Source: an uncultured Alphaproteobacteria bacterium (lineage in GTDB: Bacteria; Pseudomonadota; Alphaproteobacteria; Rs-D84). Taken from it: 64,000 nucleotides of DNA. Shown in pieces: positions 8,115 to 52,430 of the stretch. The position numbers and the translations under genes were made by a program. How positions within the stretch are numbered: position 1 is the first letter of the stretch; the number at the start of each line of letters is the position of its first letter. A model generated the notes under the pieces. It saw only the letters and a program-made list of their open reading frames with translations. It did no database searches and was not told the origin of the DNA. The stretch is from NCBI GenBank assembly GCA_947646585.1, contig CANSHD010000002.1:203614-267613 (forward strand), read 5' to 3'.

Positions 8115-9244
8115 ATACGGACGAAAACATTATCAAGATGGATATGGGAACGCTGCGCGGGGATGCGTCGGCGGCGGGCGGCCTGCTGTGCCTGGGGATA
8201 GAATCTTCGTGTGACGAAACATCCGCGGCGATTGTTGACGGCAACAGAAACATTTTGTCGCATATCATTTACTCGCAAATACCGGAACATCAGAAATACG
8301 GCGGCGTTGTGCCGGAACTGGCGGCGCGCGCGCATATATTGGCGATTGACACCGTCGTGCGCCAGACTCTGGCGGCCGCCGGAAAGGATATCCGCGATAT
8401 TGATGTTATCGCGGCGACGGCGGGCCCGGGGCTGATTGGCGGCGTGTTGATAGGCTGGATGGCGGCAACCGGAATGGCCCAGGCGACGGGCAAACCATTG
8501 GTTGCGGTAAATCATTTGGAGGGGCACGCACTGGTCCCGCGTCTGCACGCGTCGGCGGCCGACGGTACGGATTTGGCCGCGGGGGTTGAATTTCCATATC
8601 TGTTAATGCTGGCGTCCGGCGGGCACTGCCAGATATTGCTGGTGCGTGGCGTCGGGCAATATGAACAAATCGGCCAGACGCTGGACGACAGTGCCGGCGA
8701 GGCCTTTGACAAAGTCGCAAAGATGCTGGGGCTGGGGTATCCAGGCGGGCCGGTTGTTGATTCGCGCGCCCAGTCGGGGAACCCCACGCGATTTAAATTC
8801 CCGCGGCCGCTGTGCGACAAACCGGGCTGTGACTTTTCTTTCAGTGGGATAAAGACCGCGGCGCGCACCATGCTGGACAAGACGCCCGCGCCATATTGCG
8901 ATGAATTTATAAATGATTTTTGTGCATCTTTTCAGGCAGCGGTTGTGGACTGCATTGTAAATCGTCTGGGGCATGCGATGGAAGACGCGCGCGTTCGCGC
9001 CACCGCGCCGCGCACGTTGGTCGTTGCGGGCGGCGTCGCCAAGAACAGCGCCATTCGTGCCGCGATGCAGCGTCTGGCCCGGGTGAACGGCATGACGTTT
9101 GCCGCCCCGCCGCTAAATCTGTGCACGGATAACGGCGCCATGATTGCGTGGGCCGGAATTGAAAATTACCGCGCGGGCAAGATTGTGCGCACGCCGGTCG
9201 CACCGCGCCCCAGATGGCCGCTGACGGAATTGTCAAATGCGTAA
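8111..9244 (+). CDS. tsaD: tRNA N6-adenosine threonylcarbamoyltransferase
   Basis: LGIESSCDETSAAIV and GYPGGP motifs. ATGA overlap with the upstream gene. Confidence 0.95.
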   Translation: MNTDENIIKMDMGTLRGDASAAGGLLCLGIESSCDETSAAIVDGNRNILSHIIYSQIPEHQKYGGVVPELAARAHILAIDTVVRQTLAAAGKDIRDIDVIAATAGPGLIGGVLIGWMAATGMAQATGKPLVAVNHLEGHALVPRLHASAADGTDLAAGVEFPYLLMLASGGHCQILLVRGVGQYEQIGQTLDDSAGEAFDKVAKMLGLGYPGGPVVDSRAQSGNPTRFKFPRPLCDKPGCDFSFSGIKTAARTMLDKTPAPYCDEFINDFCASFQAAVVDCIVNRLGHAMEDARVRATAPRTLVVAGGVAKNSAIRAAMQRLARVNGMTFAAPPLNLCTDNGAMIAWAGIENYRAGKIVRTPVAPRPRWPLTELSNA

Positions 9245-16586: not shown

Positions 16587-18533
16587 ATGGAAGCCGGTTT
16601 ATCAGTTGTTTTTGCGAATAAGATAGTATGGATTGCATGCGGCGGCATGGCGGTTATGATGCTGGCGGCAATCGGGGCGCTGTTTTTTGTGTCGCGCAAA
16701 TCGCAGAAAGTAATGGAATCTTTGCTGGGCATTATGTTACAGCCGGAGCGCGTAAAAATCCACGACGCGTCGCGTGTTCTGCGCACACTGATGGCGGACG
16801 AAATCGCAAAGATAGAGGCCGGATTCAAAACCATGTCCGACACCCTGCGCGCCCAGATTGCGGCCGCGGACAAATTGAACGAAGAACTGGGGCTGCAGAA
16901 TGAAAAACTGGTCGCGACCGCGGATGCGGCCACCAAGAAACTGGTAACGATGTCCCAGCGTCTGGACAATACCGTAACCGGACTGCACGACGTTGTAAAT
17001 TCGGATACGTGGCACGACGTTGAAACGGCGACCGCGCGCTTTAACGAGACGATATCGGAATTGCTGGCGCGCATAGACGCAACATCGCAGGAGGCCGCCG
17101 CCCGCATCGCCCACATTCAGGAACAGATTGACGCCTGGCAGGAATCGGGCCGCCAGTTGTCGGAGCGCTTAACAGCGGAATTTGAATCGAACGGCACGCA
17201 AATGAAAGACATGTCCGAACAGTCGGCCGCCCTGCGCGATCAGCTGGGGGCGCTGTCGCAGTCCGTGGCGGACGGCTTTGGCGCGGTAAAGTCCGCGGCG
17301 GCGGATTACGAGTCGGTTATGACCGGCAACGACAAGCTGCTGGGCGAGCATATATCCAAAATGGAAAACTTTAGCAAACAGTCAAAGAAACAGTTAACCG
17401 CGCAGATGAACACCCTTACCAACACAGCCAATGTTGTCGGCGGCCAGGTGCGTCTGGCGGAATCGTCCATTGACAAGCAGGTGCGCAAGTTAACGGACGC
17501 GGTTGAAACACTGATGTCGTCGGCCACCACAACGGAAAATTCCGTCCGCGGCATATCGACGGAGCTGGCGACGCTGACAAACCGCTTTAACGGCGAGATA
17601 AAGGAATTTGCGACGGGCGTCGTGTCCGAGTTAAAGACGGTGTCGGGCGTTGCGAATGTGACGCTGGAAAACACCAAGACGGCGGCGGGCGCATTCTCTG
17701 AATCCGTGCGCGCAATGGCGACCGGCGTGCGCGAAACGCTGATTGAAATGAACACGGCACACACTCAGCTGTCGGGCCAGTCGGCCGGCCTGATAAAAAT
17801 GTCGGCTGAAACAACCGCCCAGCTGCAGCCGCTGTCGGCGTTGATAGAAAAATATTATGCGGCCCTGCCCGATTTGTCGCGCGGCTCGGCCAAGACGACG
17901 GAGACGCTTGAAAAGATTGTCGGCAGTCTGAATGAAAAAATCAATTTAATGCGCGACACTGTTTCGGAATCGATGAATGCGATATCGGATTCGTCCGTAA
18001 AGCTGGAAGACTTGGCGGGACAATCGCGCCAACAGATGATAGATTTAATGGCGGATTACGCCAAGGCCGTGAACACCATGCAGACACTGAACAAACAGAT
18101 GATGGTTGCGCGCGCGTCCGCCCCGATGGATGCCATAAAGACGGCGCCGGCGGATTCATTTGCCCGCGTCAGCAGCCAGGATTTCCTGAAACAGAGCGAA
18201 AAGCTGTTTGAAAAAATGCATGAACAGTCGCTGGATTTAACGCGTGCGGCGGGTGCGGAAATACCGGACGTCGTGTGGAAGAAATATCATGCCGGCGACA
18301 AGACAATATTTTCAAAGTGGCTGGCCAAAATGATGGCGGCGGCGGATAAAAAGCGTGTTCGTGAAATGCTGAAATCCGATGCCGTGTTCCGTTCCCAGGC
18401 AACACAGTTCGTACGCAGCTTTGACAAAGTTCTGGCCGCGTCGCGCCAGGCGGACAATGCAGACAAACTGGCGGCGACACTGATAAAAACGGATTTAGGA
18501 CAGATTTATGCCGCATTAAAGGGGCATGTATAA
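16587..18533 (+). CDS. membrane-anchored long coiled-coil protein
   Basis: Start set at ATG 16587, with a GGAGGG RBS 6 nt upstream. One N-terminal TM helix, then about 600 aa of heptad-like sequence. Confidence 0.7.
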   Translation: MEAGLSVVFANKIVWIACGGMAVMMLAAIGALFFVSRKSQKVMESLLGIMLQPERVKIHDASRVLRTLMADEIAKIEAGFKTMSDTLRAQIAAADKLNEELGLQNEKLVATADAATKKLVTMSQRLDNTVTGLHDVVNSDTWHDVETATARFNETISELLARIDATSQEAAARIAHIQEQIDAWQESGRQLSERLTAEFESNGTQMKDMSEQSAALRDQLGALSQSVADGFGAVKSAAADYESVMTGNDKLLGEHISKMENFSKQSKKQLTAQMNTLTNTANVVGGQVRLAESSIDKQVRKLTDAVETLMSSATTTENSVRGISTELATLTNRFNGEIKEFATGVVSELKTVSGVANVTLENTKTAAGAFSESVRAMATGVRETLIEMNTAHTQLSGQSAGLIKMSAETTAQLQPLSALIEKYYAALPDLSRGSAKTTETLEKIVGSLNEKINLMRDTVSESMNAISDSSVKLEDLAGQSRQQMIDLMADYAKAVNTMQTLNKQMMVARASAPMDAIKTAPADSFARVSSQDFLKQSEKLFEKMHEQSLDLTRAAGAEIPDVVWKKYHAGDKTIFSKWLAKMMAAADKKRVREMLKSDAVFRSQATQFVRSFDKVLAASRQADNADKLAATLIKTDLGQIYAALKGHV

Positions 18534-18541
18534 AAACTTTC

Positions 18542-18570
18542 TTGTATTCCGCCGGCGATTGGCATATAAT
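18542..18570 (+). promoter_or_regulatory. candidate sigma70 promoter of leader A
   Basis: TTGTAT, 17-nt spacer, TATAAT. It sits immediately before the block conserved with leader B. Confidence 0.5.
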
Positions 18571-18574
18571 GCAT

Positions 18575-18816
18575 ATGCCTGCGGGTGTTCCGCAGGTGGG
18601 GCGTCAGAACCTCTGCCTTAGCGTCGGGATAAGATTCAACAGGCGCGCATTTCCGCGCCGATTTTATTATCACGGCGACAAATATACTCCTGAACAAACG
18701 GTTCAGGAGGGTTCGCGGAATATCCAATACGCGACGCAATTCTAAGGATTGTTCTGAACCTCCTGAACCACCAATGTTTGGTGGTTTTTTCATAAAACAT
18801 CAGGAGAAAAAGAACT
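18575..18816 (+). ncRNA. structured 5' leader A (candidate riboswitch or attenuator)
   Basis: About 240 nt, alignable along its length to the minus-strand leader at 22347..22585. Contains hairpin CCTGCGG-GTGTT-CCGCAGG, two hairpin-plus-T-run terminators and alternative pairings. Confidence 0.55.
18766..18790 (+). terminator. intrinsic terminator inside leader A
   Basis: AACCACCAA-TGT-TTGGTGGTTTTTT, 27 nt before the ATG at 18817. Confidence 0.65.
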
Positions 18817-19089
18817 ATGAAAAAAACTTTAGTGATTATATGTGGTGGCGTACTGTTTGCCGGTCCGGCAATGACAATGACGTGCAGCATTAGTTCGGTG
18901 CCGGCATCTTGCATAGCAAATACCGAAACTTGCAGTGGGGGATATTGTACAACCACCTATAAATATACCGCGGCCAGTCAAAAGTGCACATGCTCAGGCA
19001 ACGGATGCTGCACATGTGCATATTTATCAAATCCGTTGTGCACCCAATGCCCGACCTCGTTCAAAGGCGTGGAATGTCCATTATGCTAA
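18817..19089 (+). CDS. small secreted Cys-dense peptide (90 aa)
   Basis: AGGAG RBS and signal peptide MKKTLVIICGGVLFAGPAMT. The mature part of about 70 aa has about 15 Cys. Confidence 0.65.
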   Translation: MKKTLVIICGGVLFAGPAMTMTCSISSVPASCIANTETCSGGYCTTTYKYTAASQKCTCSGNGCCTCAYLSNPLCTQCPTSFKGVECPLC

Positions 19090-19107: not shown

Positions 19108-19509
19108 ATGCGAAAGAATATTTTATTGGCGTGTGCGGTTGTGTCCGCAACAACAATCTCCAATGCTTTGGCGGACTGCAATCCATCGGGCACCAGCTGC
19201 AGCGCATGTACAACATACAGGTGCAATTCAGGTTATTACGGAACAGCAACATCTGGCAGTTCCGGCTGTACGGTCTGTCCGTCAAATGCAACATGCGCCG
19301 GCGGCAATGGTTCAACTTTTATATGCAACCAGGGGTATTATAAAAGCGGCTCTGCCTGTGCGCGCTGTCCGGCATCGGGCGGAGTGTACGGCACGACCAA
19401 GTCCACGGGGGCAACGTCCATAACGGCATGTTATATTCCGTCCGGAACCGCATTTACTGACACCGGTGGCAGTGGTTCGTACACAGGCGACTGTTATTAC
19501 ACCAATTAA
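19108..19509 (+). CDS. secreted cysteine-rich protein, family member P2
   Basis: Signal peptide and CxxGYY units. C-terminus is CARCPASGGVYGTTKSTGATSITACYIPSGTAFTDTGGSGSYTGDCYYTN. Confidence 0.8.
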   Translation: MRKNILLACAVVSATTISNALADCNPSGTSCSACTTYRCNSGYYGTATSGSSGCTVCPSNATCAGGNGSTFICNQGYYKSGSACARCPASGGVYGTTKSTGATSITACYIPSGTAFTDTGGSGSYTGDCYYTN

Positions 19510-19531: not shown

Positions 19532-21097
19532 TTAAAAATCAAATGACAGGGATAGTGTTGCGCTGTATGACATTCCCATATTGTCATGTAGCGCCCCTAT
19601 TCCGACATAAATAATCGCATCGTCTTCCGGCAAAGAAAGTCCAATTCGTGCATCGGCCTGCAGGCCGCCGTCGTTGTCTGAAATTATTCGGGCGTCATAT
19701 GTATAATTAATGTCTGTGGTTTTATGCGTATGGCGCGCAATGACACCGGCCCTAAGATTTATATCGGTTGAATGTTGTATAACATTTGCATAACGTGCCG
19801 CCAGCCCCACAATCGGCGTTAGCGTCATGTTATCTGCTACCAGAAATTTCGGCCCGGTGTCGGCATAAAAATCAGCGGCAAAGCCCGACGGGTCGGACGC
19901 GGTTGCGGCGCCCGATTGTAATACCGGCGTGGTGAACCGGGCCGCGGTTATGGTAATGCCGGAATCGGCAAAAATATGCGGCGCGTCATACCGGACATAT
20001 GCGTCACCGCCCGCCAGTTTGGCCGAATAATCATCGATACCGTCCGTGAAATTCATATCCGCCGCATGAATTGTAACCGATGCGCGCACCGGTTTGGCTG
20101 TGCCGGTGTTCAAGCCCGCCCTGATTCCGTATGCATCAATATTTTGACCGGTGATAATAAACGGTGCGATTTGCATTGGAGCCGGCACCCCGTCATCCGT
20201 GTGCATTGCGCCGACGTGTCTGTTAAATGTCTGTATGGGGCGGGCCAATGCGCGCGTGTTGATGCGCATAGATTTGTTCATTATGCGCCCCAGCGCGGGC
20301 ATGTCTGTCGCCCGGTCCAGACGTTGCAGCAGATTGTCATCGGGATTTATCGTACGCAGGGCGTTTAAAAATTCGCCCGTCTGATTTCCCATTATTTTAT
20401 AATAATCCGTTTCACGTGCCAATTCAGCGTACAAGGCGCCGCCGCGAATCACCGTGCGCAACGCATACAGCGGATTTATATCGTCGGCATGCAGATGCAT
20501 TGTGCCGCTGCCCGTGACACGCCAGAAAATCGGCGTGTTAAAATCAATGTCTGCCATTTTTATGTGCAGCTCGTTATCGCCGACCAACTCTATCGGCACC
20601 GGCATCGCACGCGACATAAGCATTATTTCGGGCGACAGAACAATTCCGGAATCGACCAGTATGACTTTGTCCGCGGCGGACGATATGCGCCGAATATCCG
20701 TCCACTGTAAATCGGCCGCCCTGTACACGATGATATTGTAGTTGTCGGCGACATTTATGTCCGTAATGTCATCGGGCGTGCGAATAATTTGCGTTAAGCT
20801 GGCGCTTGCGCCCAATGTAATTTCGCCGTCAATCGTGCCGCTGTTTTTAATATAAACATCACGGCCGTCCGCGACAAACACGTCGCCGGACAAAACGCCA
20901 TGGTTCTGCAGGTAAGATGATGCGGTAATGTTGATTTGATTAAAGTCCAGAAAAGCTCCACCGTCAACAACAGTGCTGTCCGCAATATTCAAGATATCGC
21001 CGTACATGTTGCTGTCAAAATATTCTGCCATGGCCGGCATAGGTATCAACATAATGCACAGCATAAAACGATGCTTCACCAATCCCCCCATCTCCAA
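19532..21097 (-). CDS. autotransporter-like outer-membrane protein
   Basis: 521 aa with signal peptide ...MLIPMPAMA and a repetitive passenger region. C-terminal beta-barrel-like alternating pattern ends ...SATLSLSFDF (terminal Phe). The exact start is ambiguous. Confidence 0.7.
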   Translation of the reverse strand: MEMGGLVKHRFMLCIMLIPMPAMAEYFDSNMYGDILNIADSTVVDGGAFLDFNQINITASSYLQNHGVLSGDVFVADGRDVYIKNSGTIDGEITLGASASLTQIIRTPDDITDINVADNYNIIVYRAADLQWTDIRRISSAADKVILVDSGIVLSPEIMLMSRAMPVPIELVGDNELHIKMADIDFNTPIFWRVTGSGTMHLHADDINPLYALRTVIRGGALYAELARETDYYKIMGNQTGEFLNALRTINPDDNLLQRLDRATDMPALGRIMNKSMRINTRALARPIQTFNRHVGAMHTDDGVPAPMQIAPFIITGQNIDAYGIRAGLNTGTAKPVRASVTIHAADMNFTDGIDDYSAKLAGGDAYVRYDAPHIFADSGITITAARFTTPVLQSGAATASDPSGFAADFYADTGPKFLVADNMTLTPIVGLAARYANVIQHSTDINLRAGVIARHTHKTTDINYTYDARIISDNDGGLQADARIGLSLPEDDAIIYVGIGALHDNMGMSYSATLSLSFDF

Positions 21098-21135: not shown

Positions 21136-21741
21136 TTAAAATTGACGTTCGCGACATATGCGCCGCAAAAAAGCCTGAAGACGCGATGATATTATGGTCT
21201 CGTCCGCGCTGCATTTTACAAGAAAATCCATGTCCAGGCCCGCGCGCAGAAAATCCAGCGGCGTGCACGTATTTGTGACACGCACACGATTGTCGTCTGG
21301 CATGTTGGCGCGGATGCGGGCGATATCAAAATTATTTTCCGGCGGGATAAAATACAGTGTCTTGAACGAATAATCACGCCCGTAACCGTTTCTCAGGAAC
21401 CAGTCGCGCAATTGTGCGGCATATTTCGGCTGAATGACGTCATAGACCAGATTCGTGTCCATGTGGTTTAGTATTTCGGATTCCGGAACACCGTATAACC
21501 ATTTGGGCTTGCCGGGCGTCCAAAAGGCCTCGTTCACCCACAGGCGGGTTGCCAGTGCTGCGGTGTCAAAATATTGTTCGTCGCGGAAATAATATTCACG
21601 ACCATCGACCTCGCCCGGGCGCATGGGGCGTGTTGTCGCCGAAACCAGCTTATGAAAATGACCCGCCGGCAGGTGATGCTCTATAAAATAGGATTTTCCA
21701 CTGCCCGACAGGCCACAGCAACACAGAACTGTCTTTTTCAT
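21136..21741 (-). CDS. guanylate-kinase-like P-loop kinase
   Basis: GLSGSGKS P-loop and SATTRPMRPGEVDGREYYF (Gmk signature TTRxxRxGExxGxxYxF). The C-terminal half is divergent. Confidence 0.65.
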   Translation of the reverse strand: MKKTVLCCCGLSGSGKSYFIEHHLPAGHFHKLVSATTRPMRPGEVDGREYYFRDEQYFDTAALATRLWVNEAFWTPGKPKWLYGVPESEILNHMDTNLVYDVIQPKYAAQLRDWFLRNGYGRDYSFKTLYFIPPENNFDIARIRANMPDDNRVRVTNTCTPLDFLRAGLDMDFLVKCSADETIISSRLQAFLRRICRERQF

Positions 21742-22346: not shown

Positions 22347-22585
22347 TTGTTCAATCTCCTGGCTTTTTTCGAAATGAAAAACCACCAAAACATTTGGTGG
22401 TCAGGAGGTTGACTACAATCTTACGAATTGTGTGCTTATTCAATATATTCGCAGCCCTCCTGACCGGGTCAGGAGTTTATTTTTCGCCCAAATAGTAAAA
22501 ACGGCGCCAAACAGCGCGCCATATGTACATATTTCGACGCGTAAGCAGAGGTAGTCACACCCCACAAGCGGAACACCCGCCTGCA
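22347..22585 (-). ncRNA. structured 5' leader B, homolog of leader A
   Basis: The minus strand reads ATGCAGGCGGGTGTTCCGCTTGTGGGG...CTCCTGACCCGGTCAGGAGG...CCTCCTGACCACCAAATGTTTTGGTGGTTTTT, with the same element order as leader A. Confidence 0.55.
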
Positions 22586-22591
22586 TAAAAA

Positions 22592-22620
22592 ATTATATAG
22601 CGCGGCGCATTATATTTCAA
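22592..22620 (-). promoter_or_regulatory. candidate sigma70 promoter of leader B
   Basis: The minus strand reads TTGAAA, 17-nt spacer, TATAAT, then TTTTT and the conserved leader start. Confidence 0.55.

Positions 22621-50545: not shown

Positions 50546-52430
<1,885 letters not shown>

Follow-up and report, generated by a model that had tools for sequence, protein, structure and literature searches.

We analyzed a stretch of 64,000 nucleotides (nt) from an uncultured Alphaproteobacteria bacterium (the window; positions 203,614 to 267,613 of contig CANSHD010000002.1), in which two copies of a structured leader RNA, leader A on the + strand and leader B on the - strand, are each found between a promoter and a gene for a secreted Cys-rich protein. 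Leader A precedes a protein of 90 amino acids (aa; 18817-19089, +) whose 133-aa paralogue follows directly (19108-19509, +). Leader B (22398-22620, -; covariance model score 188.3 bits) has the same architecture and precedes a 180-aa protein (22346-21804, -). The two leaders are divergently placed, and neither nhmmer nor the covariance model detected further copies in the window. A previous, sequence-only reading had described positions 18575-18668 as a conserved module of ~95 nt that ends in its own terminator and represents a candidate aptamer or small RNA (sRNA). This block is indeed a conserved, non-coding and structured 5′ RNA, but it is not a self-contained unit ended by a terminator of its own. 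It is the 5′ half of one structured leader RNA of ~195 nt (~245 nt with terminator and ribosome-binding site), which we describe here as a structured cis-regulatory leader, or orphan riboswitch candidate, outside every described family tested.

The promoter of leader A consists of a -35 box TTGTAT (18542-18547), a 17-nt spacer and a -10 box TATAAT (18565-18570), with the inferred transcription start at ~18575-18577. In both copies, as noted before, the block follows directly on the -10 box, at a distance of 6-7 nt from TATAAT. At its 5′ end, the transcript forms hairpin P1, GCCTGCGG-GTGTT-CCGCAGGT (18577-18597), which is supported by covariation and by RNAalifold. It is followed by a purine tract GGGG (18598-18601), strand a TCAGAAC (18604-18610), the trinucleotide CTC (18611-18613), and then CCTTAG (18616-18621) and CGTCG (18622-18626), which contribute the 5′ sides of helices b and c, respectively. 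Helix c closes an arm, P3, which comprises a middle helix GATAA/TTATC (18628-18632 with 18667-18671), a terminator-like tip T1 (GGCGCG-CATTTC-CGCGCC, 18642-18659, then GATTTTA, 18660-18666); the 3′ strand of helix c, c′ (CGGCG, 18673-18677), follows the arm. After it come hairpin d:d′ (CTCCTGAAC/GTTCAGGAG then GG; 18687-18711, with d at 18687-18695 and d′ at 18701-18711) and hairpin e (TCGCG/CGCGA with an A/U-rich loop, 18713-18734). Next come the 5′ strand of a hairpin f (CAAT, 18737-18740), strand b′ (CTAAGG, 18742-18747) within the loop of f, the 3′ strand of f (ATTG, 18748-18751), strand a′ (GTTCTGA, 18751-18757) and d″ (CCTCCTGAACC, 18759-18769), which closely repeats d and extends into the final terminator T2. 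T2 (AACCACCAA-TGT-TTGGTGGTT, 18766-18786) is followed by TTTT to 18790, the ribosome-binding site TCAGGAG (18800-18806) and the start codon ATG at 18817.

In leader B, all on the - strand, the promoter (TTGAAA, 17 nt, TATAAT) extends from 22620 to 22592. P1 lies at 22584-22564, GGGG at 22563-22560, a at 22557-22551, b at 22545-22540, c at 22539-22535 and c′ at 22489-22485. The 3′ half contains d (22475-22467), d′ (22465-22455), b′ (22425-22420), a′ (22416-22410) and d″ (22408-22398), and ends with T2 (22402-22380) and its U-run, the ribosome-binding site CCAGGAG and the ATG at 22346-22344. The GC hairpin and T-run said to end both blocks were found as described: in A the hairpin occupies 18642-18659 and GATTTTATT comes next, in B it occupies 22520-22503 and GTTTTT comes next (U-run 22501-22497). 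Also present in each leader is the second terminator further downstream (T2) that had been reported.

Conservation does not stop at 18668, where the block had been bounded, and runs on through the whole leader to the start codon. Leaders A and B are 75.5% identical in the block, 79.1% in the 3′ part and 77.7% over the whole leader, and a core of 19 specified bases, GCGGGTGTTCCGCNNGTGGGG, occurs exactly twice in the window vs. 0.04 occurrences expected. Identity is 54.8% for the 210 nt upstream and 50.2% for the first 273 nt of the coding sequences, i.e. within the range of shuffled controls. Since these flanks are at background level, the two leaders are not a recent segmental duplication, and this origin was rejected. 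A coding or leader-peptide origin of the block, which the sequence-only reading had already disfavored, was likewise rejected. The leaderless open reading frame (ORF) lacks conservation: its two peptides, from A and from B, part after ~20 residues, the triplet at the putative start is ATG, TTG, CTG, ACG, TCG or CCG among homologues, and the changes in P1 are paired. As observed earlier, P1 retains its loop GTGTT while its stem differs (GCCTGCGG/CCGCAGGT in A vs. GCAGGCGG/CCGCTTGT in B).

The partners of the single-stranded stretches of the block sit 130-150 nt downstream. In the minimum-energy fold of leader A, strand a pairs with a′ and strand b with b′; at the same positions leader B has TGACTAC/GTAGTCA and CTTACG/CGTAAG. 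The two leaders differ six times in helices a and b, each time with compensation (three of three in helix b alone). Folded by itself, the block is barely more stable than shuffled sequences (z = -2.0 for A and -1.8 for B), whereas the whole leader reaches z = -6.0 (A) and -4.9 (B). The block therefore does not stand alone: its strands a, b, and c have their partners in the 3′ half.

Homologues were collected by several routes. A first scan of species-representative genomes with a pattern of the 5′ block returned one true relative, in an uncultured Alphaproteobacteria metagenome-assembled genome (MAG; L009), and 14 chance matches in high-GC genomes; the species-level genome collection is too sparse for this leader family. 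Homologues of the Cys-rich protein comprised 27 proteins at 40-88% identity, with names, where given, of "Alphaproteobacteria bacterium" MAGs, and their contigs bear the leader upstream, including in other genomic contexts (L022, L025 and L027). From these contigs, a degenerate pattern covering the 3′ part of the leader was designed; scanning metagenomes with it gave 96 loci, whose sources include human gut, rumen and termite gut among other samples. In total, 100 unique leaders were obtained. A covariance model built from 31 long-arm sequences had 109 matches in 776 kb, 11 of them outside the search pattern. Over 100 homologues exist apart from the two window copies, and several assemblies contain 3 to 7 or more leaders. 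The hosts are uncultured gut or host-associated Alphaproteobacteria, as judged from the MAG names and from the alpha-type tmRNA in the window. This tmRNA (52072-52429, 167 bits) consists of two pieces (permuted) and, with five tRNAs elsewhere, supports an alphaproteobacterial host. A phage origin was rejected, given zero matches in viral contigs and the housekeeping neighborhood of short-arm copies (MnmE, RuvA, RuvC, and YebC).

Some copies deviate from the common form. A far more divergent relative, missed by the covariance model (L026, 9366-9686), keeps the order S1/a/b ... b′/a′/d″/T2 (S1 being the putative stem discussed below) and has a T1-like hairpin, but a longer hairpin replaces e; the genes behind it encode a 102-aa protein and a 112-aa Ephrin_rec_like protein. 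The family is therefore wider than sampled here. Tandem leaders were seen in L126 (4689-4819 and 4874-5022), L051 (~8598-8900), L083, and L118. Here, a first full copy with promoter and T2 but without an ORF is followed by a second promoter, leader and gene; the ORF-less copy may represent an RNA in its own right or a decoy. In L097 (4008-4198, -), strand a (TGAAGAC) mismatches its a′ (GTCGTTA), which fits strand a of other copies (TAACGAC); an assembly chimera or a recombinant of paralogous leaders is possible. Four contigs (L016, L017, L018, and L019) start inside a leader, and such breaks are expected when a multi-copy repeat confuses assemblers.

Covariation across the family is extensive. 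In the alignment of the 109 model matches, 92.6% of cells were paired, compared with 69.3% after column shuffling and 35-48% when partners were slid by 1-3 columns, and 50 of 51 pairs showed a compensatory change. Paired cells amounted to 98.7% for P1 (seven of eight pairs with a compensatory change), 99.1% for a:a′, 99% for b:b′, 91% for helix c and the middle helix of the arm, 96% for the T1 tip where present, and 94.4% for d:d′. Positions in the long-range helices show up to five pair types (four in b:b′). The first four pairs of c:c′ are almost always formed, and in the L009 orthologue a G-to-A change in c′ makes a U-G pair U-A. As this alignment was fitted to the model, two further checks matter. 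RNAalifold on a sequence-only MAFFT alignment recovered P1, a:a′, b:b′, c:c′, the T1 tip and d:d′, and a:a′ was present in the own minimum-energy fold of 90 of 96 members. A structure-blind script found a and a′ complementary at all seven positions in ~95 of the 100 unique leaders, with more than 25 different sequences.

From +1, the RNA consists of hairpin P1, a three- or four-way junction, a highly conserved A/U-rich loop and a three-part platform d/d′/d″. Pairing of b′, a′, and c′ closes the junction, which holds hairpins d:d′ and e. In a direct scan, hairpin e had at least four contiguous base pairs (bp) in 79 of 102 cases, with 53 distinct stem sequences; its lower value in the model alignment (60.6% paired) is due to two alignment registers. 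The loop of e (12-15 nt, A/U-rich, GAAUAU..AAUA) is conserved also in the 11 model matches free of the search pattern. Two further elements were assigned with less certainty. A stem S1 probably forms between the GRGG tract and CCY after strand a (GGGG with C-CTC in leader A), leaving strand a in its loop. At the corresponding alignment columns (37 and 51), every A faces a U (23 of 23), and G faces either C or U (Fisher p = 8.5 × 10−7). Hairpin f, CAAU with AUUG and b′ as its loop, is also probable; its variants are CAAU/AUUG (73), CUAU/AUAG (23), as well as CUAC/GUAG and GCAU/AUGU. Together, S1 and f would probably turn helices a and b into two interlocked pseudoknots. Such proposed pseudoknots, combined with a terminator-like hairpin inside the sensing domain, make for an unusual design.

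Nearly all leaders of the family have a promoter of their own. In 92 of 95 leaders vs. 11 of 84 control windows, a -10 box (at least five of six matching positions) was found at 0-18 nt upstream of P1, and in 77 of the 95 it ends 6-7 nt before P1. Most copies are followed, ~45-55 nt past the end of the model, by a same-strand ORF with a ribosome-binding site. Among 98 distinct downstream proteins, 60 belong to one superfamily characterized by a signal peptide, 7-15% cysteine and a shared C-terminal domain, which in some members matches Pfam Ephrin_rec_like. The remainder are secreted proteins with no informative Pfam match, or small helix-turn-helix (HTH) proteins of the HTH_31/HTH_3 type. Neither enzymes nor transporters were found among the 98, and they point to no common metabolite or ion. 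This gene set resembles the regulons of second-messenger riboswitches or protein antiterminators more than those of metabolite riboswitches.

Leaders with a short arm or none mostly precede the small HTH_31/HTH_3 proteins in ordinary chromosomal neighborhoods (XRE-type examples are L039, 4219-4350 and 8661-8793, L046, L048, L091, and L056). One assembly, ORMR01, holds both leader types, so that, even within one genome, the length of the arm goes with the class of gene. Comparison of the window with L009 gives 98.3% identity for the leader, 95.8% for the upstream housekeeping-type gene, and 61.5% at the DNA level for the first secreted-protein gene. A near-fixed leader in front of a fast-evolving gene suggests selection on the RNA. 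The Cys-rich genes (including L009 from 4585 onward) may constitute a variable surface or secreted repertoire. The 133-aa protein has a weak Pfam match to the Giardia variant-specific surface protein (E = 0.0077). The DNA that separates the two leader-controlled operons of the window encodes a 521-aa autotransporter-like protein with a weak Pfam beta-domain match (19532-21097, -) and a 201-aa P-loop protein resembling guanylate kinase (21136-21741, -). This four-gene arrangement is kept in L016, L017, L020, and L026. In L073 (1284-1356 and 1573-1719), a small ORF downstream of the leader runs into a tRNA gene on the opposite strand and may be an integration-site remnant or an ORF-calling artefact.

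The part of the leader closest to the gene has the layout of an expression platform. Strands d and d″ are near-identical pyrimidine strands, both complementary to d′, which is itself a GGAGG look-alike of a ribosome-binding site. Hairpin d:d′ has at least 7 contiguous bp in 95 of the 100 members and d′:d″ at least 9 in 98. T2 is present in 98 of 100, and in 93 of these 98 the base of its 5′ strand is formed by 5-6 nt of d″. In addition, d″ is complementary to the ribosome-binding site by at least 6 nt in 74 of 98 copies, and in the minimum-energy fold of leader A it pairs with this site across T2. In divergent copies these elements have changed jointly (d′/d″/ribosome-binding site GGGGAG/CUCCCC/AAGGGGA in L026; d′/d″ GGGAG/CUCCC in L083). 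With d, d′, and d″, the platform shows the 1:2, 2:3 and 3:4 logic of an attenuator at the sequence level, from which its function is inferred. Hairpin d:d′ occurs in the minimum-energy fold of 89-92 of 96 members, and forcing d′ to pair downstream costs 7.1 kcal/mol on average (5.3 for A and 4.8 for B). The terminated (OFF) form is thus predicted to be the thermodynamic ground state, and with the ground state OFF, an activating signal is the simplest reading.

According to the proposed mechanism, d′ would be held in d:d′ within the folded domain, T2 would form, d″ could mask the ribosome-binding site, and the gene would be OFF. Binding of a signal to the folded domain, be it a small molecule or a protein, would shift d′ onto d″. 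Duplex d′:d″ would then strip the base of T2 and free the ribosome-binding site, allowing read-through and expression (ON). The opposite polarity is possible, with a ligand locking d:d′ against kinetic invasion by the longer d′:d″ duplex.

None of the described systems compared here accounts for the leader. In agreement with the statement that no known class fits, Rfam 15 (4227 models) gave no gathering-score match in either leader or in 14 loci with diverse members; at E values up to 10, both leaders showed chance-level matches to unrelated families only, mostly on terminator hairpins. The leader has a covarying structured domain and a same-strand position in the 5′ untranslated region (5′UTR), as riboswitches do. 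It resembles orphan and terminating riboswitches (Breaker and Weinberg motifs) in its 5′UTR location from +1, the covarying multi-helix domain, the probable pseudoknots and the highly conserved unpaired nucleotides. It shares with terminating riboswitches an intrinsic terminator directly downstream, the 5′ strand of which is in part also used by an alternative pairing. It differs from them in its non-metabolic genes, in a terminated form predicted as the ligand-free ground state, and in the extra terminator-like hairpin inside the sensing domain (56 of 99 members). Cyclic di-GMP (c-di-GMP)-I and -II riboswitches of Clostridioides and Vibrio occur in many copies before genes for surface, adhesin and secreted proteins and for regulators, not enzymes. 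These systems, which were compared through Rfam only, are the closest analogue of the gene pattern of the leader family, but their Rfam models miss the leader, which has an unrelated architecture with P1, two probable loop-to-tail pseudoknots and an A/U-rich loop.

Classical attenuators (the trp leader, and T-box leaders in their logic) similarly combine three mutually complementary segments and a terminator, with segment 3 shared, and T-box leaders also have the more stable terminator form. Unlike in trp-type attenuators, there is no conserved peptide, and segment 1:2 lies in a folded junction rather than being read by a ribosome or tRNA. No T-box match was found in either leader with Rfam at E up to 10, nor a T-box sequence or specifier loop, and the genes are unrelated to amino acids. 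No description of the leader family was found in the searchable literature, including the text of PMC8040213 and the first 200 of its 408 supplementary files; the family may sit unnamed among the thousands of human-microbiome computational candidates of that study.

Taking these results together, we consider a new orphan attenuator or riboswitch-like, cis-acting leader with an OFF ground state to be the best explanation (probability roughly 60%). Through control of a terminator, the leader probably switches the downstream genes on or off. More tentatively, the leader could be a new riboswitch class in which the loop of hairpin S1 pairs with the 3′ tail of hairpin f and vice versa, thereby locking the junction, and which senses a signaling molecule or ion to gate hypervariable Cys-rich secreted and HTH genes coordinately through one or two successive terminators.

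Several observations weigh against this explanation. (i) The collecting pattern forces GGAGGG, AATA, GATWGT, and RCCTCC in most homologues, so the conservation of these four motifs is partly by construction and only the 11 additional model matches are unbiased. (ii) The pair counts stem from a model-fitted alignment and are uncorrected for phylogeny. (iii) S1 and f each rest on essentially one covarying pair, and RNAalifold gives GRGG another partner, CCUC of d″. (iv) T1 has no visible competitor structure, and an efficient T1 would halt transcription before the 3′ half is made. (v) The local d:d′ hairpin wins thermodynamically, and nothing in the sequence shows how d′ is released. (vi) T2 and d′:d″ overlap partly, so that both could coexist in shortened form. 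(vii) The downstream genes give no metabolic clue to a ligand. Two candidate structures were considered and found unconvincing: pairing of GCGUC of strand c with GGCGC of T1 as a competitor of T1, which comprises only 5 bp, and an upstream sequesterer of strand d, e.g. the GRGG tract.

The sensor could also be specified as a protein that lets the polymerase pass T1 and T2, which leaves the remainder of the preferred model intact. The RNA would then bind a dedicated regulator in the manner of BglG/SacY, ANTAR or PyrR, or act as a processive device like HK022 put or the Bacillus EAR element. The terminated ground state fits a required activator, and the long-arm class presents two successive terminator-like hairpins. 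The multiple copies per genome (3 to 7 or more) before coherent non-metabolic genes look like a regulon, and the large conserved loops of e and P1 are plausible protein contacts. No candidate protein is linked to the loci, however; neighboring genes differ between genomes, and Rfam showed no match to EAR or other known protein-binding leaders. Furthermore, an RNA that is complete only after a′ cannot protect a polymerase at T1. We regard protein-dependent antitermination as unlikely, though the most serious of the rival explanations.

An autonomous unit of ~95 nt, either a small aptamer with its own terminator (the first of tandem riboswitches) or a trans-acting sRNA ended at T1, is less likely still. 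Of 99 unique full-length members, 60 have a long arm P3, 29 a short one and 10 none. Speaking for an autonomous unit, 56 of the 60 long arms contain a GC-only hairpin with a run of 4-8 U, and this U-run is kept to at least 90% even though the strand facing it varies. T1 of the window copies resembles intrinsic terminators and the ends of sRNAs in being a GC hairpin of 6-7 bp with UUUU(U) within 1-2 nt; in leader A, 2 nt lie between the stem and UUUU, as in a hairpin plus U-tract terminator. Both window copies and the 56 long-arm members thus combine a promoter and a terminator of their own, and a 5′ hairpin, a single-stranded stretch and a terminator hairpin are the typical layout of a bacterial sRNA. 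Yet the single-stranded stretches of the block have cis partners in the 3′ half, with which they covary almost perfectly, and paralogues within one genome each have their own a/a′ and b/b′ (A vs. B; five in ORMR01), which precludes cross-talk in trans.

The arm itself is also at odds with an autonomous unit. T1 sits inside a helical arm, flanked by c:c′ and the middle helix, and the sequence after its U-run pairs with an A-rich 5′ strand, unlike in ordinary intrinsic terminators. The arm is dispensable: 39 of 99 members lack a long arm, four long arms lack the U-run, and T1 is missing in 43 of 99. Being optional across the family, T1 does not define the RNA, and the block cannot represent a unit that ends at this hairpin. 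No stand-alone 5′ halves were found among the covariance-model matches, except for those cut by contig ends, and the fold of the isolated block remains marginal (z of about -2). Within the long-arm subclass, the retained U-run indicates that the terminator-like shape itself is under selection. T1 is most likely an additional pause or partial-termination checkpoint of this subclass rather than the end of an independent RNA; some premature termination or pausing may occur there, or T1 may serve to bind a partner. Upstream of leader A, a 654-aa ORF ends at 18533, with no terminator-like hairpin before the promoter; T1 (18642-18665) is the first one after this ORF and might also block read-through from it. 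In contrast, rpoD upstream of leader B has its own terminator (22650-22629).

Another alternative is a cassette acting at the DNA level, in which promoter and leader serve as a recombination handle for swapping hypervariable surface-protein genes and the RNA structure is incidental. The high identity of the leader relative to the gene between strains (98.3% vs. 61.5%), the several copies per genome, the frequent assembly breaks inside the leader and the chimeric or recombinant appearance of the L097 copy would all agree with this. On the other hand, paralogues differ by double changes that preserve pairing, as expected from selection on RNA structure, copies within one genome are only ~78% identical and hence poor substrates for homologous recombination, and short-arm copies precede conserved HTH genes in housekeeping neighborhoods; we therefore consider such a cassette very improbable. 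Equally little credence is given to an RNA thermometer or other purely physical sensor that needs no ligand, with d″ covering the ribosome-binding site and melting off it at the temperature of the host. The complementarity of d″ to this site in most copies and the host-associated lifestyle would allow such a sensor. Known RNA thermometers, however, are simple hairpins, whereas selection in the leader acts on a domain of ~195 nt that includes long-range helices and conserved loops as well as a terminator, and a CCUCC strand complements any strong ribosome-binding site anyway.

For sequence scans of this kind, the result shows that what looks like a conserved, terminator-ended block can turn out to be one half of a larger structure. 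The leader represents a well-supported new family, with ~100 distinct members, very strong covariation and no match in curated Rfam 15. Its hosts are uncultured, host-associated Alphaproteobacteria whose biology is almost unknown. In these bacteria, the leader appears to control the most variable secreted proteins, and its signal would show when this repertoire is displayed or secreted.

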